Virus record (IMG/VR): IMGVR_UViG_3300043466_002015
Span: 1,462 to 65,461 of that record
Reading direction: 5' to 3' (one strand)
DNA length: 64,000 bases
Source: a virus
Taxonomy: Duplodnaviria > Caudoviricetes
The position numbers and the translations under genes were made by a program. Positions 20,890-58,800 of this stretch are shown here, piece after piece. Within the stretch, counting starts at the first letter, position 1. Every line of letters begins with the position of its first letter. The notes below the pieces were generated by a model. That model saw nothing but the letters and a program-made list of their open reading frames with translations, was not told the origin of the DNA and made no database searches.

Positions 20890-21489
20890 ATGACCGTAGC
20901 GGCTTATGTTCGAGTTAGCACAGCTTCACAGAATGAGGCTAGTCAGAAGCGTGAGATTACCAAGTGGTTGTCTGGAAACGGCATCAACGCCAACCAAGTG
21001 CTGTGGTACGTTGACAAGGAGAGCGGAGAGACGCTTAAGAGAGCCGAGTTCGAACAGCTTCAGCGAGATATTTTCAACGGCGTCATCAAAACTGTCGTCG
21101 TGTACAAGATTGATCGCCTCTCGAGATCACTAAAGGATGGGATCGATACGCTGTGTACGTGGTGTCAGAACGGGATCCGCGTTGTCTCAACCTCGCAACA
21201 AATCGATTTCACAGGCGCAATGGGACAACTGGTTGCGGCAGTGTTGTTTGCCGTTGCGCAGTTTGAAACTGAGACCAGAAGAGACAGGCAAGCAGCTGGA
21301 ATCGCGGCAGCAAAGGAGAAAGGAACTTATCGAGGAAGAGCACCAGGAGCTACCAAAGCTGGAGTTAACCCCTCTCGCGCTGCGGAACTTCGAGAGAAGG
21401 GACTCACGCATCAGGAAGTTGCGAAAACGCTAGGAGTGAGTCTGAGAACAGCATTCAGGTACTCCCAACTGCCATCGAGTCAGACATAG
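20890..21489 (+). CDS. Small serine recombinase (resolvase/invertase family)
   Basis: YVRVST catalytic motif, DRLSRS and a C-terminal HTH. Confidence 0.95.
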   Translation: MTVAAYVRVSTASQNEASQKREITKWLSGNGINANQVLWYVDKESGETLKRAEFEQLQRDIFNGVIKTVVVYKIDRLSRSLKDGIDTLCTWCQNGIRVVSTSQQIDFTGAMGQLVAAVLFAVAQFETETRRDRQAAGIAAAKEKGTYRGRAPGATKAGVNPSRAAELREKGLTHQEVAKTLGVSLRTAFRYSQLPSSQT

Positions 21490-23522: not shown

Positions 23523-24073
23523 TCCGTCACCTCCACGCCAAAATGCGAACCGTCATCAAATACCTTTTCGTTGAAACTATCACTCCAACCGTGTGCTCCG
23601 TGAAATTTGTCTGAATAACAACAAGGTGGATTAAAATCGTTTGGATCTTCTTTCCATCGCCACCATCGATCCCGATGCGGCTTGAACTCCTCAGCATTGG
23701 CAAATTGTCGATATTGCTTCGGCTTCTCGATCTTGCGTAACACAACAGCCCATCCGGTACTTGGATGAGGGCCTTCCCATGCTTCAACGGATCGATCAAT
23801 CAGCAACCTGTATTCACCAGCTACTACGACACCAATCCGCACCAACTCCCATCCTTCTGGTACGCCTGGGATGCCTCGAAAACCTTGCTCGTTGCTCATT
23901 TCTTCCTCCACATCGCATAAGAAATCAAACCACCACCAGCCACCGCGAACGGAACCCACCAGGGTATGGCGGATTCCACTAGGTAGCGAAATTCGAATAA
24001 GCTCATTGGTTTTCCTTTGCAATTCGGAATATCGTGAATTCAACATATCACCGTGATATGCGGAGTTCCGCAT
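23519..24073 (-). CDS. Hypothetical protein (true start may be the internal MSNEQ)
   Basis: ORF track. GGAAGAA precedes the internal ATG near 23899. Confidence 0.5.
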   Translation of the reverse strand: MRNSAYHGDMLNSRYSELQRKTNELIRISLPSGIRHTLVGSVRGGWWWFDFLCDVEEEMSNEQGFRGIPGVPEGWELVRIGVVVAGEYRLLIDRSVEAWEGPHPSTGWAVVLRKIEKPKQYRQFANAEEFKPHRDRWWRWKEDPNDFNPPCCYSDKFHGAHGWSDSFNEKVFDDGSHFGVEVTE

Positions 24074-24088
24074 ACTATTTGTTATGTT
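24041..24088 (+). mobile_element. Degenerate short attC-like site at the left end of array 1
   Basis: TATGCGG-AGTT-CCGCATA hairpin, 6-nt spacer, then GTTATGT. The R'' box is imperfect. Confidence 0.4.
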
Positions 24089-24516
24089 GACCTATGTAGA
24101 TACTTTTCTCTTAGGCCATAGCTACTCTTGCTGGTCTTGTCTTTGTAGTTGCCTTCGTGGTCGCGATACATTTGCACATCCGGCACGAACGTGTAAACAA
24201 ATCCTCCATCGCTGTAGTCAACATCTACTACAGTGCCCTCAACACCTACAGCCAGATTTTTCTCTGATCCCGACCAGCCACCTTCGCATTTGATTTTCTT
24301 GACAATGATAGCACGCTCCCCTTTTTTGATTGGAGAAAATCGCATTAGCAGTGCCTCGCTCTGTTCGACCAGTTTGACTAGGTAATAGTCCAATGGACCC
24401 CTAGCGAAAATCTCCTGAGCTTGCTGAATATGCTTCACTCCAGCCTTCATTCTCTCGACGAAATCCGGCAACATAACAACGGATTCCACCGAAGCCTCAT
24501 TAACGTCTGTTTTCAT
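24082..24516 (-). CDS. Cassette-borne hypothetical protein
   Basis: The stop lies in R' (G|TTA). The start and GAAAGG RBS lie inside the attC loop. Confidence 0.7.
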   Translation of the reverse strand: MKTDVNEASVESVVMLPDFVERMKAGVKHIQQAQEIFARGPLDYYLVKLVEQSEALLMRFSPIKKGERAIIVKKIKCEGGWSGSEKNLAVGVEGTVVDVDYSDGGFVYTFVPDVQMYRDHEGNYKDKTSKSSYGLREKYLHRST

Positions 24517-24559
24517 GGTTTACCTTTCTTATTCGGCTCGGTGAATCCGAGCGTTATCG
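24471..24559 (+). mobile_element. attC site
   Basis: ACATAAC-AACGGATTCCACCGAAGCC...GGCTCGGTGAATCCGAGC-GTTATCG, with extrahelical bases on the left arm. Confidence 0.85.
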
Positions 24560-24793
24560 TGACAAAACCTCTACCGCATCTTTCGCCTCGTCGTGGAGTC
24601 GCTCTCGCCACGCATCCGCTACTTCATTCTTAAACTGCTGTGGAGACCAACCAGACTCAATCGCGAGCGTTACCGCTTCCCAAACTGCATCTTCTACCTT
24701 AGATGGCGTCCGAACTCCCATTCGCAATCCAGAACCGTCAAACCCTAAACTCAAGCCTAGTGGTTTCATAAATACACCTTTGCACGATAACAA
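24554..24793 (-). CDS. Cassette-borne hypothetical protein
   Basis: Stop lies in R' at 24554. Confidence 0.65.
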   Translation of the reverse strand: MLSCKGVFMKPLGLSLGFDGSGLRMGVRTPSKVEDAVWEAVTLAIESGWSPQQFKNEVADAWRERLHDEAKDAVEVLSR

Positions 24794-24874
24794 ATCGGTA
24801 AACCGAAGTCGCCGGTCACCTAGTTCTCAAGCCCAAGTCTCTTGGCGGCGACTCGGTTACCGCTGGCGTTCATT
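24785..24874 (+). mobile_element. attC site
   Basis: CGATAAC-AAATCGGTAAACCGAAGTCGCCG...CGGCGACTCGGTTACCGCTGGC-GTTCATT. Confidence 0.9.
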
Positions 24875-25205
24875 TGAGCTTTATGCAGTCGTTGCACACA
24901 AAACTTGACTGTTTTCTGGTCTTACCGTTATCACACAACAAAACGTGCTGCTCTCTTACTTTTGTGCGTTCCTGCGGAAACTTCCAACGTTTGCATCTTG
25001 GGCATTGTCGCTGGCAAAGATGATGAATGCTCGTCATGTCATGAGCCCATTGATGCCACTGCAAATAACCATCTGGCGGCATCGAATCAATTGCGTAGCA
25101 CGGTCCTGGCTTCATCCCCATTTTCCACCAAATGAACAATTGATTGGACCGAAGCCGCGTTCGATCCGTTTTCTGATGGTTAATCGACCGACGCGGCTCG
25201 GTCAA
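24870..25205 (-). CDS. Cassette-borne Cys-rich hypothetical protein
   Basis: TGA stop lies in R'. CxxC pairs. The start lies within the attC and is uncertain. Confidence 0.65.
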   Translation of the reverse strand: MTEPRRSINHQKTDRTRLRSNQLFIWWKMGMKPGPCYAIDSMPPDGYLQWHQWAHDMTSIHHLCQRQCPRCKRWKFPQERTKVREQHVLLCDNGKTRKQSSFVCNDCIKLK

Positions 25206-25219
25206 TCAAAGCGTTACTC
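25131..25219 (+). mobile_element. attC site
   Basis: AATGAAC-AATTGATTGGACCGAAGCCGCG...CGCGGCTCGGTCAATCAAAGC-GTTACTC. Confidence 0.9.
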
Positions 25220-25681
25220 CGCCACATCGCACGAAAACAGATTCGGTGCCTGTCCACCCCAGAACTCTTTCGTGTCCAAACGCTCCATGTCGTCGCGAGT
25301 CGATCGCACGCGACAGTAGGGAGCTGTCACGACGACAATTCCTCTCGAGTTGTAGTGTCGCATAATCACTCCAGCGTGATTTCTCCACGGCCACTCTGAC
25401 CCATTGCCCAACAGCTTCCAACCGCAATTGTGCATCCTTCCATCAGACTCATCCCGCTTCCACAATATCGCCTGAGTCAAAACCAAGTCTCCCTTGTTGT
25501 CAAATACGCGATTGATCTCAATACAATCAACTTCATACTCGTGCGTTTCTGGCATCAAAGGAGACCCTAAAAAAGAAAGTAGCGCGGCAAGCATCATGCT
25601 TTTCCTGTAACAAAAAGGACCGTGTTTTTGTTTCAATCCCGATCGGTAAACCCGACTACCAAATTCGCCCGCAAACGTCAT
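25214..25681 (-). CDS. Hypothetical protein, possibly exported (start probably MMLAALL)
   Basis: ORF track. The stop coincides with the terminal R'. Confidence 0.55.
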   Translation of the reverse strand: MTFAGEFGSRVYRSGLKQKHGPFCYRKSMMLAALLSFLGSPLMPETHEYEVDCIEINRVFDNKGDLVLTQAILWKRDESDGRMHNCGWKLLGNGSEWPWRNHAGVIMRHYNSRGIVVVTAPYCRVRSTRDDMERLDTKEFWGGQAPNLFSCDVAE

Positions 25682-25744
25682 TTCGTTACCGAGCGGGTTG
25701 CATATTTAGGAAGTGTCGGGTGTTTGTGAAAAGTCCCTACAAAA

Positions 25745-25916
25745 TGGATCAGGCAGGATTTGCACCTGCTAACCGTAGCGTAAAAGGCTATCGGGATTCG
25801 TCACTGGCTTTACCGCGAATCGAGTCAGTCCTTATTTACCACTTGTGCCGTTGGTGTTCCGCTAAGACCCGTTATCGAACACAGTAGTAGCATGTCACTG
25901 TCCATGCCGCTGATCC
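25745..25916 (-). ncRNA. tRNA-like RNA 1 (172 nt) with a greatly expanded central region
   Basis: Acceptor GGATCAG/CTGATCC+A, D-stem GCAT/ATGC, T-arm GCAGG-TGCAAAT-CCTGC. Confidence 0.65.
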
Positions 25917-26074
25917 GTAAATGCGGCACTCTGTCCGCCCGTCACGCACACCCTGGTCGGGCCGACGCTGCTAGTACGTTTCGCTCGTTCTTCTATCCTC
26001 GAACAGGATGCCAGTACGTCAGCTGTATCGTCATACAACCTTCTAGCAACGGGCACCAATTTTTCAGATGCCAA

Positions 26075-26177
26075 TGGATCAGGCAGGATTTGCACCTGCT
26101 CGCCGGAGTCAGCAGTAGCCGTCGCCACAAGGGCATGAAGCCAATACTCCTGCGTGTACCCACCACGCCGCTGATCC
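26075..26177 (-). ncRNA. tRNA-like RNA 2 (103 nt) with an extended anticodon arm
   Basis: Same acceptor and T-arm as RNA 1. D-stem GCGT/ACGC. Stem GGAGT/ACTCC encloses 36 nt. 5-nt variable loop. Confidence 0.7.
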
Positions 26178-26266
26178 ATAAAATCCCCATCGGTAAAATC
26201 GAAAATTTCCGCCCATTCTCAGGACGACGAATATTTTACCCGCATTGCCCCGGTGACGCAAGAGCA

Positions 26267-39680: not shown

Positions 39681-41261
39681 CTACTCAACTCGGTACGGGT
39701 TGCTACGTCCTTCATGATTTCCAATTGTGAATCCGTACATATCCCGGACTCTACGCTTTGCGTCATCATTCCCATAAGGAATCATTTTGTACCTCGCTCC
39801 ATTTACTTCTACGGACGCTGGTACGCGAAATCTCGTACCTTGTCGTTCCGCTTCTTTTTTCGCAAAGTACCATGCCTGTTTCCAAGAACCACCAGATTTC
39901 CCAGCTTTGTACAGAGCGCTAATCATTATCTCTTCGCAAGTCTGTTTCTTGGTTGGCTTTTCTTTCTTTTCGATTTCCTGTAGCTCTCCACCAACAAAAT
40001 CTAGCCCTTGAGCCTTTCTCTCTCGTTGACTTGGCTCGTAGCCACACGCAATGCATTTTCCCCCACGGTAGATTGCACCACAGGATGGACATTCAACAGT
40101 CGCTCGAGACTCATGCGTCTTTGCGGGACGCTCGCCCCATTCTAGCGTCCAGTTGATGTCGTCCTCAAAAAAACCATGTCGCCTAATATTATCTGCGTGA
40201 TCGAGAACGATACAGTTTGCCACCTCTGGATGCACTCGGGATCCACGCCCAACCATCTGGCGATAACGAACGACTGACCCGATAGCAGTACAAAGCTGCA
40301 CGCAACCAACGCGAGGAATATCAGTGCCTCGCTCAATCACACCTACGTTGCACAGGTATTGAATCTCGCCACTGTTCAGCCTCTTAAATAGCGATTGACG
40401 ATCTTCATCGCTTGTTTCTCCATCGACGTAATGCGCATTGACTCCATGAGCCCGCAGCAACTCCATTGCTTCATAGGCGTGCGATCGCCTCGGGAAGAAG
40501 CCCACTGTGGCTCGACCGTCAGCCAGCTTCTTCCAGTCACGCACTAAATCACCAGCAAGCCCCTCCATAGCCTTCGCAACGCTTTTCTCGGTATATTCAT
40601 CACCGCTCTTCTTGAGCAATCCCAGCTTGCCCTGGGTGGCTTGAAAGTACCTAAACGGAGACAGGAATCCATTCTCGATCAGCCAGGACGGCGAAGGTCC
40701 ATTGACGATCTTCTTGAACACCTTATTCAACTCTTCGTGCTGCGGAGTTGCCGAGAGACCAAGGATGAACGGAGGTCGCAAGCCCAACGCTTCTCGCTTG
40801 GCGTTATGTGCTTGAAGAAACGTGCGAAATTTGCTGATGTGCGAGTGAATCTCATCCCACACCATGAAATCGTAAGTAAAGTCGGTAGCGTATACATCAC
40901 CATCAACATACCAACTGTTTTTTGTATCGATTGAAGCAACCTGAATTGATTCTATTGGAGATGTGTCGCATCCAGCCATGATTAAACCGTGCGGCAGTAC
41001 AGGATGCTCGTTAAACGAGTTACTGGCGTTTTCGACTAGCCCTCGCCTATGCACCATGAATGCTGCCCTGCCCGACTCGTCGTCTCGCTTCGGTCGATTG
41101 AGGTAGCAGCCCAAAATGTGTTTCGCCACTCTGGTTTTGCCTCCACCTGGGGGCATGCAGGCAATGACGGCGCCGTGTTTCGCAATTGCAACACGAAGAT
41201 CCTGCACAAGATCAACTTGGTAATCTCGCAGATCAGGAACTAGTATTTTCTCTGCTGACAC
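39681..41261 (-). CDS. Superfamily 2 helicase with a C-terminal zinc finger
   Basis: PGGGKT, DEIH, SATP and QMVGRGSR motifs. Confidence 0.92.
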   Translation of the reverse strand: MSAEKILVPDLRDYQVDLVQDLRVAIAKHGAVIACMPPGGGKTRVAKHILGCYLNRPKRDDESGRAAFMVHRRGLVENASNSFNEHPVLPHGLIMAGCDTSPIESIQVASIDTKNSWYVDGDVYATDFTYDFMVWDEIHSHISKFRTFLQAHNAKREALGLRPPFILGLSATPQHEELNKVFKKIVNGPSPSWLIENGFLSPFRYFQATQGKLGLLKKSGDEYTEKSVAKAMEGLAGDLVRDWKKLADGRATVGFFPRRSHAYEAMELLRAHGVNAHYVDGETSDEDRQSLFKRLNSGEIQYLCNVGVIERGTDIPRVGCVQLCTAIGSVVRYRQMVGRGSRVHPEVANCIVLDHADNIRRHGFFEDDINWTLEWGERPAKTHESRATVECPSCGAIYRGGKCIACGYEPSQRERKAQGLDFVGGELQEIEKKEKPTKKQTCEEIMISALYKAGKSGGSWKQAWYFAKKEAERQGTRFRVPASVEVNGARYKMIPYGNDDAKRRVRDMYGFTIGNHEGRSNPYRVE

Positions 41262-41310
41262 AATAGCACCGCCTTATTAAAAAACACGCCATGCCACGCC
41301 CATTTGCCTG

Positions 41311-41907
41311 TTATGCGGACCTAGGCATCTCCAAATCGCCAGCAACAAGTTCCCGCCGTTCAAACACGGTTTCGGCTTTGTAGCCACGATACTTACAACA
41401 CATATCCACGACTAACGGCAATAACTCCTTCAGTCGCGTATTCCAATCTGATGTTCCCGTCGACGACAACACTTGCGCGACCTCTACCAAAAATTCCTTT
41501 TCGTGCTCCGCCTTCGACGAAATTGCGAACTTGCGAGCCTCATAGTTTTCAAACAGTTCAACTAAAGCACCCGAAGACGTAGATTTCTTGTTCATTAGTT
41601 TTCCCTCGTCCATTACCTTGTAACATAGCCTTGTCGCGTTGCGACGATTACTTTTCATCCGACCAAATAATGCAAAATCTTTCGATGTCGATACCCGTAC
41701 TCGCCAATTGTCGAAACTATGCTTTGACGCATAGCTCGCTGCCGCATCTTCGCTGTTCCAAACGCACAATTGATGATCCGCAGTACGGCATAGCGTACTG
41801 GGGTCGATTGTATCCCTCCCGTTTTTGCAAAGAACAAACATCGTAGGTCCGCATAACAATTGATTGCATCGAAGTCCCCGTCGAAGCGTTTTCTGATCTT
41901 TAATCAC
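41311..41907 (-). CDS. Cassette-borne hypothetical protein
   Basis: Stop lies in G|TTATGC at 41310. The start lies within the attC. Confidence 0.6.
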   Translation of the reverse strand: MIKDQKTLRRGLRCNQLLCGPTMFVLCKNGRDTIDPSTLCRTADHQLCVWNSEDAAASYASKHSFDNWRVRVSTSKDFALFGRMKSNRRNATRLCYKVMDEGKLMNKKSTSSGALVELFENYEARKFAISSKAEHEKEFLVEVAQVLSSTGTSDWNTRLKELLPLVVDMCCKYRGYKAETVFERRELVAGDLEMPRSA

Positions 41908-41940
41908 CGAGCGGGGACTCGATGAACCAAAGCGTTATGT
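41851..41940 (+). mobile_element. attC site
   Basis: GCATAAC-AATTGATTGCATCGAAGTCCCCG...CGGGGACTCGATGAACCAAAGC-GTTATGT. Confidence 0.88.
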
Positions 41941-42300
41941 CGACGAATCAGCCCACCCTGGAGGCGTCCAATCCGTCACTGTCTTGCCTTGCTCGATGTA
42001 GCTCAACTCCGATGCCTTCATGCCCCACCTGTCCGCCGCTTCTCGCAATCCATACCCAAGAATTCTTAAGCGGTAATGCCGGAACTTCTCGCCACGTTCC
42101 ATTCGCAAAACGTGCTCGCTGGACACTTCGCCGCGTCCGTCGCAAACGTGACACGGTAATTCACGAACTGGCGGCCCGCTGTGCCCTGGCGCGTATTTCA
42201 CGAAAACCGCCGTCATGGTCTTGTCCCCGTCGCACTCTGGACAGGCGACATAACAACCGCATGCACGGGAGCACTCATCAGCGTCGTTTAGTTTGGTCAT
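41935..42300 (-). CDS. Cassette-borne DnaJ-type zinc finger + XRE HTH protein
   Basis: CPECDG...CHVCDGRG and GLREAA...ASELSYIEQG motifs. The RBS lies in the attC loop. Confidence 0.7.
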   Translation of the reverse strand: MTKLNDADECSRACGCYVACPECDGDKTMTAVFVKYAPGHSGPPVRELPCHVCDGRGEVSSEHVLRMERGEKFRHYRLRILGYGLREAADRWGMKASELSYIEQGKTVTDWTPPGWADSST

Positions 42301-42338
42301 ATCTTTCCTTTCGTGCCCCGTGATGCGGAGCGTTAGGT
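42248..42338 (+). mobile_element. attC site
   Basis: ACATAAC-AACCGCATGCACGGGAGCAC...GTGCCCCGTGATGCGGAGC-GTTAGGT. Confidence 0.9.
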
Positions 42339-42653
42339 GGACGATTTGAGAGCGTCGAGAATAGCATCGAACGTAACTGAATTGTCTCCACGCTTACTGT
42401 CGTACCACGCACGCAATTGGCTTTCTTGCATTTCCGCCAGTTCGTCACGCCAATCTCCGCGAACAATAAACGGCGAGCCTTGGACATGCTTTCGCGTTGT
42501 TGGATCTATAAAACAAACTGCCGTTTCCCACTCCATATATCCAAAGCCCGTCATGCGATGCAAAACGCTGATCCAACAAGTTTCGTTAACCGTCCTAACG
42601 TGTCGCTCCCCGCCTTCGCTGCGGTTGTAGTCTTCTGTTTTGTCTTCAAACAT
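42333..42653 (-). CDS. Cassette-borne hypothetical protein
   Basis: Stop lies in R' at 42333. Confidence 0.65.
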   Translation of the reverse strand: MFEDKTEDYNRSEGGERHVRTVNETCWISVLHRMTGFGYMEWETAVCFIDPTTRKHVQGSPFIVRGDWRDELAEMQESQLRAWYDSKRGDNSVTFDAILDALKSST

Positions 42654-42700
42654 TCTCGTTTACCTCTTTCCTTTCGGCCCGGTGAATCCGAGTGTTATGC
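42593..42700 (+). mobile_element. Half-degenerate attC site (right arm intact)
   Basis: CGGCCCGGTGAATCCGAGT-GTTATGC resembles the right arm at 24534-24559. Only CCTAAC remains of the left arm. Confidence 0.6.
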
Positions 42701-42997
42701 GGACTTAGTTGGTGTTGATCTGAAATAATCCGCTAATCCCAACCCAATTCGTTGCATCTCCCCTGACTCAAAAGCCAACCGCAACCTGTGCATCGCGTTC
42801 GCTGTAGCGTTGTATCGTTGCTCAAGTTCCTCCCAACCTCCCTTTTGATGATCAACCATCATGTGCAACAGACAGTCGATCAAATACAAATCGCTCATTG
42901 GCGTGCCATCATCGTGTGTAAGCATCGAAACCTCCAGCCGCATAACAATCCCATGCACCCAAGCGGCGATCGGGTGCGTTGACTTGGAAACCATCAC
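42695..42997 (-). CDS. Cassette-borne hypothetical protein
   Basis: Stop lies in R'. The N-terminus (PIAAWVHGIVMR) is encoded by the attC arm. Confidence 0.65.
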   Translation of the reverse strand: MMVSKSTHPIAAWVHGIVMRLEVSMLTHDDGTPMSDLYLIDCLLHMMVDHQKGGWEELEQRYNATANAMHRLRLAFESGEMQRIGLGLADYFRSTPTKSA

Positions 42998-43027
42998 CCC
43001 GCCGCTGGGTGATGGGTAGCGTTATGC
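42940..43027 (+). mobile_element. attC site
   Basis: GCATAAC-AATCCCATGCACCCAAGCGGCG...CGCCGCTGGGTGATGGGTAGC-GTTATGC. Confidence 0.92.
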
Positions 43028-43089
43028 AGACCTACTTGAAATCCAGATCCTTCCGCCTGACAAAACGATAAACCAAAGCCGCCGGTCAT

Positions 43090-43494
43090 CTACGCACAGT
43101 CAATAAACTTAAGCACCGTTTCAACCCCAACATCAAGTGGAAAATCGACATACCACAGGATGTGCGAGCCCATCTTTTTTTGCACCGTCCAATACGGTCT
43201 GTCGTGCGACTCGGTGAGAACGCGAAACGGACCCTTAAAGTAAGTGAGCCTCGGAGGACTCTTGCGTTTAGATTCGCTAGTGTCTCTTTCGCATTCTCGG
43301 TCGAAACGCTTGCGGTCATCCGACCAGTAACCAAGCTCTGCTAACCTAGCTTCCATTTCGTGCTTTGGTGCTAGTGGTCTCTTCACTGCAATTGGCATTT
43401 CCAAACTCCATTTACCACAGGGAAATCTTCTGAACAATCTTAACGAGGCGATCTTGTTCGGATGGGTTTTTCTTGATGCGAGCATAATCGTCAA
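43090..43494 (-). CDS. Hypothetical protein (true start probably internal)
   Basis: ORF track. It overlaps the end of the ParB-like gene. Confidence 0.5.
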   Translation of the reverse strand: MTIMLASRKTHPNKIASLRLFRRFPCGKWSLEMPIAVKRPLAPKHEMEARLAELGYWSDDRKRFDRECERDTSESKRKSPPRLTYFKGPFRVLTESHDRPYWTVQKKMGSHILWYVDFPLDVGVETVLKFIDCA

Positions 43495-44173
43495 TCGCTA
43501 AAACAAGCTTGTCGCGGTGCTTGTTCGCGAGAGCCTTAAACTTCTTGGCTTCTGCTTCCAAGTCTTGTGATCCTGCATTCTTGATCTCAGCCAGCAGTTT
43601 CTTGCCGTCGCCACCAGAACGCCTTGCTGCTGCCTTTTGTTTGCCCTTTGGCAGGTCAGCCAGCTTCTTGAGTGCTGGACCTGACAGACTGTCAGCAGCT
43701 TCCTTTGCCTCGTCAGCAATGGTCTCTACCAATTCCGCGCGTTCTACGTCGCGATAAACCTGACGCTCCGAGACGCCAGACTCATTAGCCACCAGTTCCA
43801 CTGCCTCCTGCTTCCCCTTGCCGCCACTGACGTGATACATCACCATTTCCGCCCGAAAGCGAGACATCACGACAGGAGTTAGATTTCGTCTGCCAATAGC
43901 ATCACGCTTCATTCTGTACTCGACATCGTCGATAGTCTGAGCCGATTCGTACACCTGCTGAACTGTGTAAGGAATACCTAATCGCTTACACAGTTCGTAT
44001 CGGTGATGCCCATCCACAAGAACGTCGCCCCACAGCCAGAGCGCGTTGTACGCCTTCCCTTCCTCGATTAGCGACTGTTCGAGAATTCGAATCTCGTCCG
44101 TGTTGAGCGGAGGGATTAGCACCTTGAGACGGTCTAAAACGCGAATCTTGCCAGTAAACGATTTCTTGCTCAT
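43412..44173 (-). CDS. ParB/Srx-like N-terminal domain protein
   Basis: LIPPL..DE...LEQSL..EG, LVDGHHRY and RRNLT motifs. Confidence 0.8.
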   Translation of the reverse strand: MSKKSFTGKIRVLDRLKVLIPPLNTDEIRILEQSLIEEGKAYNALWLWGDVLVDGHHRYELCKRLGIPYTVQQVYESAQTIDDVEYRMKRDAIGRRNLTPVVMSRFRAEMVMYHVSGGKGKQEAVELVANESGVSERQVYRDVERAELVETIADEAKEAADSLSGPALKKLADLPKGKQKAAARRSGGDGKKLLAEIKNAGSQDLEAEAKKFKALANKHRDKLVLAIDDYARIKKNPSEQDRLVKIVQKISLW

Positions 44174-44186
44174 TGCTTTGCCTTTG

Positions 44187-44456
44187 CTAAGCTGACACAG
44201 TTTCAGACATTGCTTGCTCGAGAAGCGAGATGTAACGCGCATCGCACTCCTTCTTTGTCCGCTTCCGCAACGGATAGATTATCTCACTCAACGCTAGCCT
44301 TGCTTGGTGCTCGCTCACCGCAACAACCCATAGCTGCGTAGCGGCAGCAAACTGTGGCATCTCATGCATTGCAAACAATGGAAGCTCACGCTGCCGACTG
44401 TCCTTAATCGCTGCCATCTCATCGTCATGCACCATCGCCGATCGATCTTCCAACAT
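44187..44456 (-). CDS. Hypothetical protein
   Basis: 89-aa ORF in the operon. Confidence 0.55.
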   Translation of the reverse strand: MLEDRSAMVHDDEMAAIKDSRQRELPLFAMHEMPQFAAATQLWVVAVSEHQARLALSEIIYPLRKRTKKECDARYISLLEQAMSETVSA

Positions 44457-44493: not shown

Positions 44494-45285
44494 CTACAAC
44501 TGGACTTTTTTATTCAATGCGGCGTACTTCGCTGCATACACCTTCCTCAGAGGATTCTGCAATCGCTCTGGCTTGTTCTTAAGTTTTTCACCAACCGATA
44601 CAAGCTCCTTGACCCCCTGACATCTGTTCATGTCCAGGCTCCAGCAGTGGACCTCGGCATCAAAAAAGTAACCATCGACCGCACTTTGCAACTCGGCAGA
44701 TTCCTTGCGGTAGAACTTCTCGAGGCTCTCCAGCGAATCAACGCAATCGCACTGGCTGATTGCATCAATCCAACTCTGCTGCTCTTCAGTAACCACAACG
44801 ATTTCCGCTGGTGGGACATGCTGCGATTTGGAACGCGCAATATTATCCTCCTCGCTATCGGGCTGACCGCGAAGGTGAAACGCAGACAGGTACGCAGACT
44901 TGGCAGCATAGCTGATCGCTTTACCAGTGGCTTTATCGCCGTAGTCAAGACCTTGCCCCCATCCAACGATGCATTGTCGATCTTTAGGATCATCGGCATT
45001 GACGAGTTCGATCTGAATGAGGCACTCGGCATACCAAGTGGTTCGTGGTTTCCCGTACTTGTCCATCTCCTCGAAATGCTCCAGCTTTCGGTCACGTATC
45101 TCAATGATCGTGGCGACAACGCCATGCTCAACCAGTGCGTGGCGAAGCTTCTCGTCAATGTCGTCAATTCGATGGTATTCGAACCGATCCCCGTAGTTGG
45201 TCTTTCCACCTTTGCCAACAGCGCCCATGCTCCGCATGACACTTACCAACCTCTGATGCAAATTACTCACTATCTGTCCCTCCAA
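44494..45285 (-). CDS. ERF-family ssDNA annealing protein
   Basis: G.G.D..DKATGKAISYA.K..Y...F motif, adjacent to an exonuclease. Confidence 0.8.
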   Translation of the reverse strand: MEGQIVSNLHQRLVSVMRSMGAVGKGGKTNYGDRFEYHRIDDIDEKLRHALVEHGVVATIIEIRDRKLEHFEEMDKYGKPRTTWYAECLIQIELVNADDPKDRQCIVGWGQGLDYGDKATGKAISYAAKSAYLSAFHLRGQPDSEEDNIARSKSQHVPPAEIVVVTEEQQSWIDAISQCDCVDSLESLEKFYRKESAELQSAVDGYFFDAEVHCWSLDMNRCQGVKELVSVGEKLKNKPERLQNPLRKVYAAKYAALNKKVQL

Positions 45286-46093
45286 GCGTCAAAGAAGCGT
45301 AAACCTTGCGAGCGATCTCAACTCGAGAACGAAGCGTATCGATGTACTTTTCGTCGCGATGAAACTCGAAACACTTGATGCGGTGGTACTCTGGAACAAG
45401 ACGAGCAGCATTGTGCATGTTGTTGACTTTCTCAATCGCAGACTGATAGTGCGTATTGCCCTCGTCGCAATTGAAGCGAAAGTAAAACCGTTTCTTCTCT
45501 TCCTCCACAATCTCATGCGGAGTGTTGACCAAGACGTGCGCCAGCCTAAATCGTTTTCGTCCCGTCAACGCCAAGTACACTTGACCCTGCGCGTAATAGA
45601 TGGGGTCTGGTCTTGTGGTCTCGATAAAAGTCCTGAGAGACCAGGAGCACTTTACATCTTCGACCCATTCTTCTGACACGACGTCAGGTGTGCCGCTAAA
45701 GTGCTCGTCAGACCATGACTCTTCGTTCTTAACTCTGAAATCGCCAGGAACCTGCCTCGTCAACACACCTAGGGCTTCGTCCTCGCACAGCAACCCTTTG
45801 AGGATTTCGTTCGTGACAATAGGCTCCTCGTAACCGTAGACGTTCTTGAGCCACACGTCTCGAATGTACGCCATCGCGGTGGCACCAAATTTGAACTCAC
45901 CGTCTCGCTTTGCAAGCAGCTCATCAAGCTCCACTTGCATGTTCGCAGTCAACGGCTTTGCCCCGTCCCGGCGACGTGCTTCTAGTTCATCGAGCCTAGC
46001 CAGTTGCTTCTCGGTAATCGCGTTTCCGCCAACCATGAGCTGCCCAACCGAAGAGGCGCGAAACTTAACTGACAGGAAGTCAGTGGATTCCAT
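45263..46093 (-). CDS. YqaJ/lambda-type exonuclease
   Basis: FRASS, KG...ED.A, GTPD...EDVKCSW and Y..Q.Q.Y motifs. Confidence 0.85.
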   Translation of the reverse strand: MESTDFLSVKFRASSVGQLMVGGNAITEKQLARLDELEARRRDGAKPLTANMQVELDELLAKRDGEFKFGATAMAYIRDVWLKNVYGYEEPIVTNEILKGLLCEDEALGVLTRQVPGDFRVKNEESWSDEHFSGTPDVVSEEWVEDVKCSWSLRTFIETTRPDPIYYAQGQVYLALTGRKRFRLAHVLVNTPHEIVEEEKKRFYFRFNCDEGNTHYQSAIEKVNNMHNAARLVPEYHRIKCFEFHRDEKYIDTLRSRVEIARKVYASLTLGGTDSE

Positions 46094-49857: not shown

Positions 49858-52800
49858 TTAATTGCCACTCAAAGTTTTTCTAAGTTGTCGAAGTCTGTTG
49901 GTAATTCCTTCCTTTAGTGTCGACACCCCATTCTTCGTTTCATACGGCGAACCGTAGTTTCGTTTCCAATAATCAATCAAAAGCTTGCGTGACTCCTCAT
50001 AACTTAGCCCCGACTTCTTAAACTCCACCAGGAATTTGTCTCGTTTTTCCACCGCTTCTTTGTAGCTATCGTCGCTCTTGTAGTTCTTTCGCACTGGATT
50101 CACAAAAGCTTCATATACAACTGTTTGCTTTTTGTGATCGCGTTGGCTTTTTACTTTTTCCATTTGATCCGTTGTAAGAAGATCTTTGTACGGTGGATCT
50201 GGGGAGTCCCATTCCATACGCTTCAAATCGGTTTCAAACTGCTTCAGCCGATCGGTTTCATTTGCCTTTTTGTACTTCGTTTCATCACCGTGCGTCGAGA
50301 CAGACACCCCGAAGAACGCTTCAAGTGCTGCTAGCGTACCCCTCTTGAGTCCCAACTCGCTTTCGGCTGCATATATTTCTCGCCATGTCAACGGCGTGAG
50401 TCGAGATTTGACGATATCAGTTTTGGTCATGACGTTACCCACCGCATCTCTGCCCGATATCCACTCTAGGATGGCAGATGGTGCCGTCCCAAGCTTGTAC
50501 CTGCCGTAGTTGATGACGAAGTCAGCTGCTGTCTTCCCGCCGTAATCAACATCCGCACCGTAAATTGACTTGATCTCGCCCTTTCCGGTTTTTATCTCTC
50601 CAGTGAGCAGCCTTGCTGCCAGGACAACGGCTGGCATCAAGCCCCCCTCATCCTTAAACCGAGTCTCACCAATCTTCAACGCCAAGGCATCGCTTGATCG
50701 CAAATCAAACTCCATCGTGGGCTTCTCTTCCTCATCGTCACCAGCGAGAACAGAGTAAGCAAAGTATGCGGCCGCCATTTTTGCCGCATGACCAACCATG
50801 GCTTGTATGTAAAGCTTAGCCAAAGCGACACGCATCCCGCGATCAGCATTCCACTGACCTATCCATTGAGGCGTAGCCAGCTGGAAAGGAACGATAAAGT
50901 CGGCTTGAATCCTAGACCATGTCCATCTTCGAGCTAGGAACAACCAGTCCAACCATGGGTTCCCACCTTTCAACCCAGTACCTCGACCACTGAAGATATT
51001 CACAGTGCGACCAACTTGCTTGATATCGTTGTCGGTCCAGTCGGTGTTTGTTCCAAAAAACTCTCTCGCTGCCAGCGTGTCACGCTTTTGGATGTCGTAC
51101 ATGTCAGCCTTCATGATGTTCGAGAACGTGCGATTGCCTCGCTCGAACATTGCGTAAGCCTTTGCCCATGTTCTGAGTGGAAGCAACAGCTTTGTTTCCG
51201 TCCGCTCAAGCCACTGCATAATGGACGACTGATACATTTCCTCCAGTTTTGCCTTTGGACCTGTTGCACTAGTGAAATCAACACCAGCCAAGTGATACTC
51301 TTGTGCGTTTGCCCTGCTCTCTATGTTCTCCATTGATGCCAAAGCCAGCCGCTGGCTAAACACAGCTGGCATGGATTCAACCAAGGCACTGAAAGCCTTC
51401 ATGGGCTGCGAATACGTGTAGAAAAATCCTTGTCGCAGCACAAACGACATTTCCATCCCCAGCATTAGCGTCTTTGGTATCAACGACGTAGCCTCAAGTA
51501 CTCCTTGACCTATCCACTGACCTGCGTTCCAGGTAGCACGATTGGCTTTTTCTATCGCAATCATCGCTTCATACTGAGCCTCCTCGATCTCCATGTTCTT
51601 TTGGATGATCGATTTCTCGGTGATCGTTCGTTTCTGCAACGGAACAGGAAGACGACCAGCTTGCGCTTCATCACGACGCTTCATCCAGAACGCAAGTCGC
51701 TTTTCCTGAGACTTGCGATATCGCTCCCAGTACTTAGCTTCTTCTCTGGCTTGATACGCTGGGCTAGCCTGTCTGGCTTGCTTTTGAGAAGCTCTCAACG
51801 AAGCCAATTCAGACTTGAGTTCTTCCTTGCGTTCAGACGTTAATTCGGCACTCTTGCCAGCAGCCACCCACGTTCCATCAATGAGCGATTGCACGTCAGC
51901 CTTCACAGCATCTATTTGACGACGGAGCAACTTGACAGATGCCTCGATCTTCTGCTCATCGGTAAGTTGCTTTCGACCCTTCTTTGGAGATGTGTCTGGA
52001 AAGATTTTTTCGTATTGGGCCTTAAGTTCGTCTCGCTGCCTACGCTTCTCCTCCAGTTGGCTTCGGAGACTGGCAAGCTCGGCATCGGGCTCGAGCCGTG
52101 ACTTCTCTGCAACGGGCTTAGCCAATTCCTTTCGGTTATCTACCGCCTCTTGTAACGAAGCAATGTCCTTATCCAGCATCTCAAGCCTATTGCTTGCTGC
52201 TGTCTTTGCTGTTGTCAGTGCAGACTTCAGTTGTCCTTCTCGAGATTCAGCGGGAACTGGCAACGTCTTCTTGAGCTTGTTGAACTCAGCAATCAGATCA
52301 CGCTCGATGCTGTCGGGAGTTGCTCGCTCTTGCCCAGTTGCTTTCGGAAGCAAGCCTTGATCTCGAAGACGTGTAGCCACCTCTTCTGGACTGACGCCAC
52401 TTTTAAGCCATGCATTACTCTGCGAGATAGCCTTCAGTGCATCCTCAATCTTGAGCGACTGGCGAGCTTTTCCGCGAACCGCTCTGATGATCACCTCGAC
52501 CTGCTCAGGTGGCAGTTCTCGCCATACACCGTAGTCAGAGATAGCCTGCATGGTGTCGTATTTATCAATCCCTGGCACCTCGAGTGACAACTGGTCATGA
52601 ACCACGTCGACAACATCCATCCAGTTTTCTTTTTCAGCTCCATAACCCAGTTCGATAGCCGACCTCATAAGCTCTTTAGCTCTTGCCGCAATATCTGCCC
52701 TTTGTGGATTTGCTCCAATCGGAGAAGTTACCTTATCCTTCTTGTTGCTGTCTTCCCATGCGTCTCTGATCACCTGCATTTGCTCAGGCGTGACATCTGG

Positions 52801-55800
52801 CATGTTTGCGTTAACTTGAGACTCGAGTTCTAGCATCGAGCTAACTCCCGCCTCTCGCAAGGTCGCGACTAGGCTAGCAGCTGCTGACTTGATGTCAGGC
52901 TCTTGGCGCCCGGGGGAGTAGCGAATGTCTGGATTGCTTGGGTCGAACGTGCCGCGATTGCCGGTGGCGGACTTGATTTGTGTGGGCTCAAACACTGCGT
53001 AAGTCGTAATGTCATTAAGTGCATCTTTCCAGATAATACCATCGTATCCGTCAGCGGCAGACTGACCGATTAACTCGTTCTCTTGATCAACTTCACCCAA
53101 GACGCTTTTTTTATCTTGAGCATTCAGTATCAACGGGTTCTTCAATGAAAGATACACTGGGTAAACAGCGTTCTGTTTACCTCTAGAATGCTTTGCTTCA
53201 TCAGGGTCACTAGAGAAAAACGCAGCATTCGACTCCCCCCATCCCCACGTTTTGAAATTATTGATATTTGCATTTGGACTGCCGTGGTAAACCACTAGCG
53301 GATCCCCGTCATCTCCAACTACCTTGCTGTCGCCAAACCACTTCTTGAAAGCAGATGTTTCGGTCTGCCGACCAACAGCAGCGCGATCGAAAGTACTTGC
53401 TTGCTGTGAGTCCTCCCACACATTGATGGCGTACTCAAGCGGATCCAACAATGCCTTGGATGTCTCCAGCAGGTTTTTGACATCGGACCCCATGTCTGGA
53501 TTGTTGGCGACATACTTAGGCAGATATTTTGCAAACGCTTTAGCGAGCGACTTGTAGTCTGCTGGATCGCTAAAGGCGTCTCGATTGAAACCAACCCCAG
53601 ATTCTTTGGAGATTTGCTCGAGCATCATGCTGGTGGACTTAGTTCGGTCTTCGAAAAGAACACGCACTCCGTCACCCCAGTTTATTTCTTGCAAGCCACT
53701 CTGAGTTGCCCACGTATCGAGCATCTTCATTAGCTTGCTACCTGGGCTGAACGGATTTTCGTCTCCAAAAGCAGACCCAAGAACTTCCATATCTTTGTCG
53801 CTGATGTTTGAGTCTGGAAGCCCTTTCATCATCAGCGGCATGTACGCTCGCAACCACTCGTTTCTAGACACAGACGAAGGATTTGGAAGATCTTCCGATC
53901 CGAAACCAAAGCCGTATATGCCTTCCATCGGGTCTTGTCGACCAACAGCTGCGCGATCGGAACCCTTACCGCCCCATGCATTCTGAAATGCCGCGAACCC
54001 ATCAGCCACCTTCTTCAACAACGTAGCTCGCTTCGTCCCGATCTTTTCTTGAGGTGGATTTTGCTTTGGAGGCAAATCCGCTTCAGCTTTCTTCCTGGCA
54101 ATGGTTTCCTTAGCAAGCTTCTTGGCAAGATCCACCTTGTCCTTTTCTAGCTTCTCGATGCGATTGGCAAGCTCGGAGTACTCCTGCATCTGCGCATCAG
54201 TAGGATCGCTACCTACAACGCTAAAATGCTCATTGACGAGTCCAGCCAACGAGTAGTCGCTAAATCGTTCCGCCTTACGACTAACCAAAGCACGACCAGC
54301 TTCAGTGCCGCCAATGTTCGCTGCCTTTATCGTTCTCCGCAGCTCATCAAAAACATCCTTGCCAGCTCTTCGTTGGTTATCGAGATACGCAATGTGTTGC
54401 CCGATAGCCGCACTTTCTATCTTGCCAAGTTGTTCTGGATCTTTCTCAACCTCTGCTACGAGTTGCAAGCGGTCCTTCGCGGTTGGATATCGGCGACGAG
54501 CCTCCTCTTCCCACATCTCAAAAGATTCTCTAGCTGGACGCACTCTTGGCGGCAATCCAGACTCTGCTCGCAACTCGTCCGTCTTGCGATTCTTAATGCT
54601 AGTTGTTCTGTCGCCTGCTACTTGCGGCTTGATGACACCCTTCTCTTCCAGCTGCTTGTACAAAGCGGCGAGGATGTCGTCCTTTGGTTTTCGCCTTGGT
54701 GAGTAGCGAACGTCAGGCAGCGTCTCGTCAAATCGCTTGCTTAACGGGACGACATTTCCAGAGTCATCGTAAGTTACAGCATCAGATGATTTGATTTGTG
54801 ATGGGGTAAATGCAACGTAAGCGTCGAAGTCAGACGTTCCGTCAGTATCTTTGATAATTACCCCGTCGTAGCCCATCTTTTGAATTGCCTTGACGAGAGT
54901 TCCATCGGGATCCTCTTCCTTGTCAAACAACTCCCACGAAGCGCCCTTGCGATCAAGCCATCTCGAGTTGACACCTTTAGAAACCAACGTGTTAAACTGA
55001 GCGTCAGTTATGCCGTTTCTCCAATCCAGCAGCTCACCAAATACACGGAACTTACGTACGCTTCCGCCTTTTCTTCCTCCCTGCTCTCGATATCGAGACG
55101 CCGCCTCTTCGTCGGTCGTAAAAAACGCGGCGTTCCTGCTTACCTCGTACGAACCGAATACAGTGCTGTTGAATCCCTTGCTAGGAATTTGAAACTCGTA
55201 GAAGTTGGAGTGCGGGCTACCGTGGTACAAAACTGGTGACACTCCACCAGCAAATTCGCCAGCACCTGCAGCCGCTGCATCAACCATACGCTGTGCCTTC
55301 GCCATGTCGCCCTGGTCTACTGCGGCAAGATACTTGGCGTCATTATTGCGACCTGAGGAGTAACGATAGTCATCTCGTCGTCCCAGCACAGGATTCTTAG
55401 CCAATACCATACCGCCAACTTGCACCACTTCTTCTGCTGATACCACTGGAGTCTGCGTATCTTTATCATAGAAGTAAGTGTGGCGTACTGGATTCATCCC
55501 AATTTCAACCCACCGATCCTTGTTAGTCTCTGCAAGCTTGTAGGCTTGCTGCGAAGTCATCGGCACATACTCGCCTCGCATGGTAGCGATTGTGGACTTG
55601 GGCTTGCCAGCGGCGATATTTAGAGCGGCGTTTTCAGTGACCCCGAAAGTAACATTTCTCAATACAGATGTCGGAGTATAGGCGACAACTCGACCGGCGC
55701 TTCCCTTGTTCAGGTCTGGGCGAGGTTCATGCAAAGAAACCACCCAGACGTTTTCTTCATCGTAGGCAGGAATATCCAGTCGGGTTTCAAGCAATCTTCC

Positions 55801-58800
55801 TTTGGCGATGTCTTCAGAATTTTGAATTAGATCTCTCTTTAGTCGCTCGCCAGCTTTGCGATCGCCCAATCCGCGAAGCATATCTTTCTTGCTTGCTGGA
55901 ATCGGCACCTCGTCAAACTTGCGGAGAGGCATTCGCATATCCACGATCCTCTGATACTGATCACGATCGATCAAACCAGCTTTCAGATCCTGTGCGGCTT
56001 TCGTGACCTCGGGATCACGCTTTCTCTTTCCTTGACGACCTGGGGAGTAGCGAACACCTTCATCGCCCATCTCCTCCATGTCTGCGGCACGACCCTCAGT
56101 CCAGGTCCACTCGGGCATTAGTCCCGTTTTTTGATCAGCGAAGACCGTGTCCAAGACTTTAGCAGTGCGGTTTTTCTCGGCGTAAGGACCGTAGTTAAGC
56201 CAAGAGTTTTGTCCGCGAGTTTCGCTGGTGATTGCTCCCACAGCCGGGCCCGTAAATAAACGTACGTGCGCTTGCCACGCATTTTCTTCTCCACGAGCAC
56301 GGAAGCTAGCGCCCTCTAAGCCGTGCCCGAAAGAATCGTGAACAGCTCGGAATAGATCATTAGCAGTGACTGGACGTTCTACTCCGTTTTGATCATTCCA
56401 CTTGAGCCCTGTGTCGGCAAGCATCGGATTGTCATCAACAGCGCCCTTCGTGATGCCTTCGGTGCCATAACCGTCATAGGTTCCGTACACCGCCATCGTC
56501 TTGTTCTGGCGTAGGTCACGCATGGCAGCCACTGGGTTGCCATCGTACGGATCGGCCGCACCATCATAGAACGTGAAGGTGTATCCAGCCTCAACCAGTG
56601 CATCATACTGAGCCTTGGTTTGACGAATTAGATCAGCATACGCTTCTTTGACTGCGGGATCGTCAGGCGCGTGAGGCATGTCCTCATACGCCTGAGCAAT
56701 GCGCTTAGCTCTCGCCTCATCAACCTGGACGTATTCGGCTTGACGCTTGAGGTCGATCCCATTATCGCGAGCGTACTGCTCCGCAACATCAACTAGCCTT
56801 GGGTCTGGCCCCGTCGCCCCTTGCTTAATTGGAGCACCTTCAAGCGGCGAATAGCGCCCGCCCGAAGATCGTCCTCTTCCGTCACGATCTCCCGTTGATT
56901 CGGATCGTCGTCCAACTGCTGCTCGCTCTGATCCTGCGGCAGACCCGACAGGATCTCGTCCATTTCTCTTGCCTCTTTTTCGGACACCTTCCTCCCGAAC
57001 GCCCTCTCCAGGCTCGCTGTAAACAGGTCTTGCCCAGGTTGGGTCGTTGATGCCGCCAGCTGCTTCGAAGACTCGTCTTCTTGTTTCGTCAATTGTGAAT
57101 TCGCCATTTTGATACCCCTTCCAAATGCCGTCGATCTTCGCGACGTTCTTTTTGTCGCTCTTGAAAACATCTGTAAATAGCCCACGAACCGGATCCCAGG
57201 TCGCACTCTGAACTTGCCTAGGCAGCAAACTATTTTCTTTTGCAGATAAATTATAAGCTTCAGCGAATGCATAGTATAGACCCTTAATTCCAAAGGGCCC
57301 AGAATTAGCAACTCCACCTGATCCAAAATTCTGGCTTACCTGGGGAGATGCCCCCGACAGAGGCATCAGAAGAGCTGCCGCGATCGCATGAGTGTCCATC
57401 GTCACGTCGCCATCAACGCTCATTGGATCGATGATATTGTTATAGAAGTTCCTGATTTTGTGCATCACTCCAAGGCTTCTTGTGATGTTTTCTGGACTTC
57501 CATCATTTCGAATCGAAACAGCTTTTCCTATCTCGCTAAAGGAACCCCAAGCCACTCTGGATTTTGACCCGTCCGCATTCCTGGCCACATCGATAACGCT
57601 TCCATCAGGAGCAATGACGTTATAGTCCTTGGTAGTGTTGATTTCATGGTAAAGCCTTACCATGTATGGCTGTACGTCCTGTGGCACGTCACTAAGTTTA
57701 CTTCCGATATAACCTTCAAGCATTGATATTACTTTATCAGCCTTGATAATTGCTTTCGAAAGATCACTCTTGGAGGTGTCAAGTGCTGTTTTGTTTTTCT
57801 TTGTTCTTGACTTCTTATACGCTTTCTCCTCCTTCCTTACTTTGGCTTCAACTATATTGATGCCAGCTACACGCACTACTTCTTTCTGATAGTTGACCAT
57901 GTCTTGAGTCATAGAAGGATTGACTTCAAAAGCATCCAGCAACAGCTCAGAGATTCGTACATTTTGATACCAATCTTTTTGCGGAGACATGGCAGCTATA
58001 ATTCCAGCTGCTTGCTCTGGCGAAACCTTAAACCGACCGGCTAGCTCATTGGCTATTGCGTTTGCTCCGTCATACCAAAGAGTCGATAGGTTTTTTAACT
58101 CGGGCTTATACTCGGAAAGAATGTAATTTAAGTTGTCAGCAGACTCTCTAACAAACACATCGTATACTTCTTGAGCCTGCTCTACGCTGATTACTTTTTT
58201 AAACGCCTTCTTTCCAGCAACTATTGGATATGCAGCAATGATATTGGAGTTTTTAATGAATACCTGAGGAGCTTTTTTCTTAACGTACTCCAACGACAGA
58301 TCTTCTGTTTCTTCAAAAACATCCTTGCCTTTTACCTTCTTTGCAGAAAGCCCCTTCGAGACACGCTTTCCAGGCCTATCTTTCGCTCTAACCTCCTCAA
58401 TCTTGATGTTATCAGGAGAAAACTCGCTCCTGCCCACCGATGCACGCTGCCCTTGATCACTTCTTGGTGCGATATTGTTTTCCTTCATCGCAGACTCAAT
58501 AGCCAATCGCACTTGACCAGCCAGCGTATCGGGCTCAGCAAATCGCAATGCCTTACGTACCCAGCGTCCGATCTTCGCCAACAAGGTAGGCTTGTCGCGT
58601 CCGAGTTCGTCCCAGAAATTAAAGTCTCCAGCCTTTTCTTCTAAATACCTTGAGAGACCTTCTTCGTTTCTCAAATCCTCGTCGCTAAGCACCTTAATAG
58701 TGTAATCAGCAGCGAACCTTGTGCCGTCGCTGATTGTAACACCAGCAGCTTGTGCTGCCTCTATAGCGGACCTCACATGATCTGCCGCAAAAAGCCTGCC

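Follow-up and report, generated by a model that had tools for sequence, protein, structure and literature searches.

Integrons have been treated as devices of bacteria, and clusters of their attC recombination sites in phages as rare curiosities. Modular shuffling of phage genes has also been proposed for the promoter early stem-loops (PeSLs) of T4-type phages, repeated intergenic stem-loops that flank small variable early genes, carry promoters and are thought to act by homologous recombination. According to the main text of Qi et al. 2023 (PMC9892861), integrons or clusters of attC sites lacking integrases (CALINs) occur in 21 phages, with 17 CALINs from cultured or GenBank phages, and five of the six phage attC sites assayed there proved to be substrates of IntI1; an array of this kind without an integrase is therefore already known from phages. 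As outlined in a preprint (10.1101/2022.09.11.507474), IntI can also insert cassettes outside att sites, at positions termed attG. Here we describe array 2, a row of four gene cassettes at positions 41310-43027 of a 64,000-nucleotide window of phage DNA. The window is IMG/VR record IMGVR_UViG_3300043466_002015 minus its first 1,461 bases; the record is a 65,461-bp lake-water phage that CheckV rates as 100% complete. Array 2 is a genuine integron-type cassette array without an integrase, its attC sites are of the family found in Pirellulaceae, and all of its genes lie on the strand opposite to that used by most bacterial cassettes. An initial annotation, made from the sequence alone, had regarded an integrase-less array in a phage as unusual; given the published cases, such an array is not new in itself.

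The four single-gene cassettes, which had been proposed together with a flanking attC fold for each, occupy 1.7 kb; three of the folds are intact hairpins, and the fourth site (attC c) retains the right arm only. At the left boundary of the array, which takes the position of attI (41310..41323, + strand), G 41310 belongs to the phage backbone, whereas TTATGCGGACCTA moves with cassette 1 as its R' remainder. The DNA to the left forms no hairpin (41230-41325; z +1.1 when folded as single-stranded DNA against 200 shuffled sequences, as in all fold tests here). The cassette 1 gene (41311..41841, − strand; 176 aa) ends with a TAA stop that is the TTA of the R' box. attC a (41851..41940, + strand; R'' GCATAAC to R' GTTATGT) lies entirely upstream of this gene on the mRNA and folds with z −3.1 (41846-41945; 1/200 shuffles as good). 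The cassette 2 gene (41935..42300, − strand; 121 aa) stops in the R' box and starts inside the loop of attC b (42248..42338, + strand; R'' ACATAAC to R' GTTAGGT), which holds both its ribosome-binding site and its ATG; here z is −2.05 (42244-42345; 10/200 shuffles as good). The cassette 3 gene (42333..42653, − strand; 106 aa) runs into the degenerate attC c (42594..42700, + strand), whose right arm and R' box GTTATGC (42694-42700) are intact. Within the coding sequence of cassette 3 its left arm has decayed, only CCTAAC is left of R'', and no fold is detected over 42588-42705 (z −0.1; 88/200 shuffles as good). The cassette 4 gene (42695..42925, − strand) encodes 76 aa from an ATG that follows a GGAGG motif. 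The distal end of the array is attC d (42940..43027, + strand; R'' GCATAAC to R' GTTATGC), which folds at −26.4 kcal/mol (42936-43033; z −4.5; 0/200 shuffles as good).

Neither cassette 1, cassette 3 nor cassette 4 encodes a protein with a Pfam family. Unnamed homologues similar in length number 69 for cassette 1 and 57 for cassette 3, and the AlphaFold model of the cassette 1 protein (mean pLDDT 82.8) returned 0 fold matches in the PDB at E<=0.001. The cassette 2 protein carries two CxxC motifs, recognized by eye, and a weak helix-turn-helix that scores 21.7 bits against HTH_31, under the 27-bit Pfam cut-off. With at least two attC sites and no intI nearby, array 2 is classed as a CALIN, and not as a complete integron, in which intI stands next to attI and the array. 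The numerical definition of a CALIN used here is said to stem from Cury et al. in 2016.

The six intact hairpins of this phage, three from array 2 and three from a further array (array 1, described below), share a single plan. The 5' part consists of AAC, 2 nt, 6 bp, one unpaired base, 6 bp, an unpaired A, a stem and the loop, and the return arm of 6 bp, 6 bp, 3 nt and GTT. AAC (R'') and GTT (R') are invariant in 6/6 aligned sites, compensatory double changes affect 11/19 consensus stem pairs, and GCGTT is the only stretch around the junction that is invariant across the six. The extra bases that had been noted on the left arm are recovered as two unpaired columns on the 5' arm of the + strand. 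We take the spacing of these sites to match that of the aadA7 attC. R1, a covariance model built from the six hairpins, gives them 69-91 bits on the + strand, compared with 8-16 for the minus strand (attC a, 86.8 and 12.4; attC b, 82.6 on the + strand; attC d, 75.8 and 16). It misses attC c, and no other sequence scores above 13 bits, whether in the window or in the nearest relative by backbone, L001. The sites therefore possess the defining features of attC: inverted R''/R' boxes, an imperfect L''/L' stem conserved in structure, strand asymmetry, a G|TT crossover and membership in a family linked to intI.

Pattern searches were also made. A 14-mer alone, with 3 mismatches allowed, gave 5 matches against 3.0 expected, not beyond chance. 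A strict structured pattern derived from three of the six sites did exceed chance, with 3 matches in the window and 0 in 100 shuffles. A scan for hairpins with matching R''/R' boxes of their own recovered only attC d, because each R box is a chimera of two adjacent cassettes, in itself a mark of integrons.

This chimerism can be quantified. Integron crossover takes place between the G and TT of R', and the bases after the G therefore belong to the next cassette and pair with its own R''. We measured the signature as contiguous complementarity outward from GTT, leaving out the near-duplicate contig L018. Viral cassettes matched their own R'' over at least 7 nt in 61/73 cases and over at least 9 nt in 41/73, compared with 14/103 and 0/103 for the two boxes of one physical viral hairpin and 605/5000 and 157/5000 for random box pairs. 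Bacterial arrays behave alike, with own-R'' matches of at least 7 nt in 147/201 cases versus 27/352 within the same hairpin. In array 2, the complementarity that the initial annotation had pointed out at 41310, 41934 and 42694 is exact over 15, 9 and 9 nt. The left junction of cassette 1 pairs with its own R'' at 15/15 positions (arms 41309-41323 and 41844-41858; 100%), and that of cassette 2 along all 9 nt (41934-41942 and 42246-42254; 100%). GTTATGCGG at 42694 pairs with CCGCATAAC at 42938-42946 over 9 nt, inside a 22-nt arm that is 82% complementary. Insertion of the cassettes at G|TT, also claimed at the outset, is borne out by these counts together with breakpoints at GTT in related phages.

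The same attC family stands directly beside integron integrases in bacteria. The strict pattern matches 29 stretches among IMG/VR contigs and 114 among bacterial genomes; among the 80 bacterial matches listed, 73 are labelled Planctomycetota, mostly Pirellulaceae. R1 detects long co-oriented rows in bacterial genomes, such as 11 sites in 8 kb of L043 and 10 in L036. The integron integrase model TIGR02249 exceeds its curated cut-off in 3/5 Pirellulaceae genomes tested (G003, G004 and G005), and all four of the intI loci examined in these three carry R1 sites, 5-15 each and 33 in total. At 4/4 loci, the row of sites begins 0.7-1.4 kb from the intI 5' end, occupies the other strand and is directed away from the integrase gene, which is the layout of a classical integron. 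Bacterial cassette ORFs mostly lie on the attC strand (L155, 5/5; L156, 4/4; L153, 4/5; L036, 8/9; L043, 8/10), and L154 is mixed (4/14). Because R1 sites adjoin intI at every locus examined, the phage hairpins are real attC sites whose top strand is the + strand of the window. As judged by sequence and structure, their family is that of the chromosomal integrons of Pirellulaceae (Planctomycetota). A check with an attC covariance model had been suggested with the initial annotation, and the outcome obtained with R1 is favourable to it.

Gene orientation sets the phage array apart from these bacterial rows. All four array 2 genes lie on the minus strand, that is, the attC bottom strand, and not in the canonical top-strand layout, just as initially described; array 1 has the same orientation. 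For cassette 2, in which both strands are open, the coding strand can be read from substitutions. Relative to a copy in contig L171, 17/22 fall at third codon positions of the minus frame, with 7 amino-acid changes in that frame and 18 that would occur in the plus frame. We surveyed orientation more widely with a hidden Markov model of the six sites (493 hits, 151 loci) and a longest-ORF rule. The viral intervals, which were drawn with a pattern from this phage, come from lineages that are not independent and include both near-duplicates L007 and L018, comprise 40 antisense, 5 sense and 32 ambiguous cases under this heuristic rule. Under the same rule, the bacterial intervals comprise 21 antisense, 115 sense and 79 ambiguous cases. 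The bacterial antisense calls are spread over 17 loci, mostly one each, with two or three only in L065, L118 and L047, and 61/78 bacterial loci have none; L065 is a contig of a metagenome-assembled genome with phage-like site scores. The antisense layout is the rule for phage-borne arrays of this attC type.

The viral antisense cassettes are organized around the recombination point. In 47/50, the gene ends within the cassette at 1-14 nt from the G of R', and for 16 of those 47 the TTA of the R' box itself provides the stop codon. The longest ORF of 24/50 begins in the hairpin loop. Stops by the R' box and starts in the loops therefore make these cassettes compact mirror modules that do not cross the swap point. 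As a separate observation, several cassettes carry GAC(C/T)TA at positions 9-14, past the 9-nt R box (41310-41323, 42694-42707, 43021-43034 and 24081-24094). On the minus strand this motif adds a second-frame TAG next to the TAA that the box provides, and 17/50 surveyed stops lie at that offset. A comparison of phage antisense ORFs with bacterial sense ORFs found 0 homologous pairs in a small sample (44 viral and 136 bacterial ORFs), which fits two separate cassette pools without proving them.

Cassettes of array 2 recur in other viral and metagenomic sequences. Cassette 2 (41934-42339) is 94.3% identical to L171:3367-2962, exactly from R' box to R' box, and this copy occupies the array 1 locus in L171, between homologues of the two flanks of array 1 of this phage, which are 83% and 68% identical. 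Four public sequencing runs (X1-X4) were available as contigs only, such that stretches they leave uncovered carry no meaning; run X1, with 93% of the words, may be the sample of origin. Cassette 2 (41931-42335) is found in an X3 contig with 4 differences (99% identical), and the DNA to either side of it there is unlike that of the phage. In X1, X2 and X4, the stretch shared with the phage is limited to 42658-42701, the right arm of attC c. The contigs of X1 and X4 diverge just after the GTT at 42694-42696, and that of X2 5 nt past this GTT, after 42701. Contigs of X2 and X4 diverge before 42942 and 42937, respectively, and an X4 contig diverges after the GTT of attC d (43021-43023). A copy of cassette 1 in L169 (83%) begins to resemble it exactly at GTTATG, and its left flank is unrelated.

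Array 1 (24081..25222, attC on the + strand) contains attC sites at 24468-24562, 24782-24877 and 25128-25222, scored by R1 at 68.8-91 bits, and three minus-strand genes. Its cassette at 24081-24555 is 100% identical in L007 and L018, compared with 93% for the shared left flank. An additional cassette of ~535 bp is inserted in L007 at the GTTATG common to both, and in L029 four other cassettes stand between the two array 1 flanks, which are retained. Near-identical cassettes amid more diverged flanks indicate that cassettes move faster than backbones diverge, and that they move between both arrays. The comparison of related phages that the initial annotation had called for thus gave differing cassette content with breakpoints at the R' GTT. 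The array 1 locus can also be described as a cassette hot spot, with conserved flanks and differing cassette sets in at least 4 other viral contigs (L007/L018, L029/L023, L171 and L014/L015). Its left flank, in the position of attI (24020-24086), has an inverted repeat and ATT before GTTAT, similar to the candidate attI of a Novipirellula integron. This flank shares the 8-mer TATCACCG with the Novipirellula locus L155, as noticed by eye and without statistics in a comparison with L154-L156.

Taken together, it is highly probable that the cassettes are inserted and exchanged by an IntI-type tyrosine recombinase. Such an enzyme would cut the folded bottom strand between the G and TT of R', and it would be supplied in trans, most likely from the integron of the infected cell and less often from a co-infecting phage. 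We place it in trans because the phage encodes no tyrosine recombinase. TIGR02249, PF00589 and PF01797 find no match in the whole 65,461-bp record, and so the lack of intI first remarked on for the window extends to the rest of the genome. The initial interpretation, that the phage gains and shuffles genes with a host integrase, is supported: exchange at GTT argues for cassette turnover, and the use of a host enzyme is suggested by the absence of one from the phage. We also infer which enzyme acts and when. Each cassette forms a self-contained module on the attC bottom strand, with its stop in or just after the R' box and its start in the loop or just beyond the hairpin. Expression would presumably occur via read-through from the phage operon, and the cassettes may represent accessory early genes. 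None of the 29 related viral records passes the TIGR02249 cut-off, and 1 of them encodes an IntI-like gene. That record (G011; 42,780 bp, complete with terminal repeats) has the gene at L166:149-1180 (+ strand), scoring 259 bits against a cut-off of 265, and the best family of its product is integron integrase. Two attC sites that belong to this family (L168:1251-1347 and 1901-1997, − strand) are divergent from it, ~0.9 kb upstream across the terminal repeat, and the cassette gene between them is antisense to attC and runs in the same direction as intI.

Several points weigh against this account. One of the four attC sites of array 2 has decayed, and an attC is missing from the far side of the cassette 1 copy in L169, so certain units may have lost their mobility. 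Intact intI is absent, as judged by TIGR02249, from 2/5 Pirellulaceae genomes that carry such arrays, and therefore not every host can supply the enzyme. That the host would be a Pirellulaceae bacterium is itself suggested by the attC family alone. The phage encodes a recombinase of another type, a small serine recombinase (20890-21489). Recombination was not seen directly: the contigs of X1-X4, data that are uninformative on circles or excision, contain no joint or circle junction. In L001, the interval matching array 2 has no attC and holds unrelated ORFs of 244 and 350 aa instead, which leaves array 2 with no clean empty-site comparison; a metagenome contig search with the neighbouring helicase gene gave 3 loci, none with a usable upstream region. 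The same interval of L001 includes an odd tRNA-like gene with an undetermined anticodon (L001:7987-8059).

A different view of the hairpins is that they are short homologies, at which the Erf-like protein and exonuclease of the phage shuffle modules by homologous recombination in the manner of PeSLs and without IntI. Both genes lie close to array 2 (44494-45285 and 45263-46093), and attC sites taken from different cassettes share 73-95% identity along 75-100 nt. Its crossovers, however, would be scattered along the repeat, and would preserve neither the R' remainder nor the complementarity of the arms. The breakpoints instead fall at the R' GTT in almost every junction, the X2 contig being the exception, each cassette keeps its own R' remainder (in the 61/73 cases above), and the arms remain complementary through double changes. 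The invariant junction stretch amounts to GCGTT, to our knowledge too short for annealing proteins, and the same site family stands beside intI in bacteria. We consider homologous shuffling improbable. The serine recombinase (+ strand) is the only site-specific recombinase found in the genome (PF00239, 115.6 bits) and lies 2.6 kb from array 1, which would make it a candidate for moving the cassettes. A gene of this kind is present, however, in only 4/30 attC-bearing viral records and in 1/7 of those that are at least 90% complete, and the sites belong to a family of IntI-linked arrays. Its NCBIfam matches all fall far below their cut-offs, with XisF and the Ccr cassette-chromosome recombinases on top and an Mpi-type invertase fourth. 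Serine recombinases act on double-stranded sites, and we know of none that uses folded hairpins; that this enzyme moves the cassettes appears very remote.

The array could also be a frozen relic, that is, a piece of a bacterial integron captured once by an illegitimate event and now immobile, with hairpins that persist as mere RNA or DNA structures. The decay of attC c and the lack of an integrase in cis would agree with this, as would the ribosome-binding sites and start codons in the hairpin loops, by which the hairpins also matter for expression. The opposite orientation biases of bacterial (115 sense to 21 antisense) and phage (5 to 40) cassettes, however, mean that taking over a bacterial array whole would not account for the cassette content. 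The absence of homologues of phage antisense ORFs among bacterial sense ORFs, in the limited sample given above, likewise speaks against capture. Cassettes that are identical or 94-99% identical in backbones with more diverged flanks point to recent movement. A relic is thus hardly likely.

Given the orientation survey, our work raises the question of why the phage genes are mirrored. According to a review of integron host factors (PMC8946536, as far as its treatment of strand choice goes), folding and recombination of the attC bottom strand increase if that strand forms the lagging-strand template, and in chromosomal arrays it is kept on the leading-strand template. Here, the coding, non-template and G-rich strand of the phage is the bottom strand, and it would lie on the lagging-strand template if replication runs with the direction of transcription. 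GC skew tracks gene direction everywhere and therefore cannot separate replication from transcription. A reason for the mirrored orientation can accordingly be put forward only as a tentative idea, which we regard as possible but somewhat short of an even chance: phages of Pirellulaceae may maintain a separate pool of cassettes, a mirror image of that in bacteria, with the same attC, the same IntI chemistry and genes on the recombinogenic bottom strand. If so, the bottom strand, being non-template and probably on the lagging-strand template, would let the sites fold and recombine readily during infection. A cassette that passed from one pool into the other would fall silent there, which would protect the phage against defence or toxin cassettes of the host, and the host against genes of the phage. 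The phage would then parasitise the host integrase as a gene-shuffling engine, and some phages would bring their own IntI.

Array 2 is located in the early/replication gene block of a complete 65-kb phage, where all substantial ORFs are on the minus strand. In minus-strand order, the exonuclease (45263-46093) and the Erf-like annealing protein (44494-45285), both PHROG matches beyond the ParB-like gene, are followed by the ParB-like protein itself (43412..44242, − strand; PHROG match), which is the backbone gene on the distal side of the array. A 134-aa ORF and the four small ORFs of array 2 come next. The order continues with a superfamily-2 helicase, the backbone gene at the attI end (39681..41261, − strand; Pfam Helicase_C, ResIII and DEAD), which is 76% identical in L001, then an unassigned 292-aa ORF and a D12-class adenine methyltransferase (Pfam). 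Weak PHROG matches to terminase and portal lie further left than the methyltransferase. The serine recombinase discussed above has 199 aa, with a Resolvase domain and a helix-turn-helix, and is encoded on the strand opposite to nearly all other genes; it could be an invertase, or a dimer resolvase partnering the ParB-like gene.

Three further features of the window were recorded. A single ORF of 4,275 aa spans 49858-62685 (− strand) and corresponds to a region that is 72% identical to L001. A ~330-bp unit is present in two copies, each with a conserved 36-nt box (25743-25778 and 26073-26108) and a 20-nt box (25902-25921 and 26163-26182); the two kinds of box contain the mutually complementary motifs GGATCAG and CTGATCC. 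These units look like the ends of structured RNAs and gave no ARAGORN or Rfam match. ARAGORN detected no tRNA in the window, and Rfam returned 0 matches in window positions 20000-46000, including none for the attC sites.

Together, these findings suggest that at least 28 viral contigs use the attC sites of their presumed host lineage to swap single early genes, with a polarity consistently opposite to that of bacterial cassettes. If this is true, phage genomes in Planctomycetota regularly become mosaic through integron recombination. Two cassette pools would then share one enzyme and no expression, which bears on how defence and counter-defence genes circulate. The mirrored orientation also offers a handle on how attC folding, transcription and the direction of replication set cassette mobility.

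The literature search found no published description of mirrored cassette orientation or of cassette exchange between phages. The main text of Qi et al. does not contain "antisense", "opposite" or "Planctomyc", and its supplementary tables may list orientations. Compared with the PeSLs of T4-type phages, the sites described here differ in their attC anatomy, in breaking at G|TT and in having relatives next to intI; on account of the first two features we set the PeSL family aside. Insertion at attG, in the form outlined in the preprint, is a possible route for a first cassette into a phage genome without attI, although to the eye the left flank of array 1 looks more like an attI of Pirellulaceae. 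With the sedentary chromosomal integrons of Pirellulaceae (G003, G004 and G005), the phage arrays share the attC family, an R box of ~9 nt with each cassette and the G|TT crossover. The bacterial arrays stand beside a divergent intI with genes mostly on the attC top strand, whereas those of the phage have no intI, lie within operons and carry their genes on the bottom strand. The closest counterparts are the phage CALINs of Qi et al., which, in the main text, are likewise integrase-less attC rows with small cassettes in phage genomes, virulent ones included, and have attC sites that are proven substrates of bacterial IntI. The co-oriented layout is described there as typical of bacterial arrays, whereas here the genes lie systematically on the attC bottom strand, the host lineage is probably Planctomycetota, and the exchange of cassettes between phages can be followed at the level of individual junctions.

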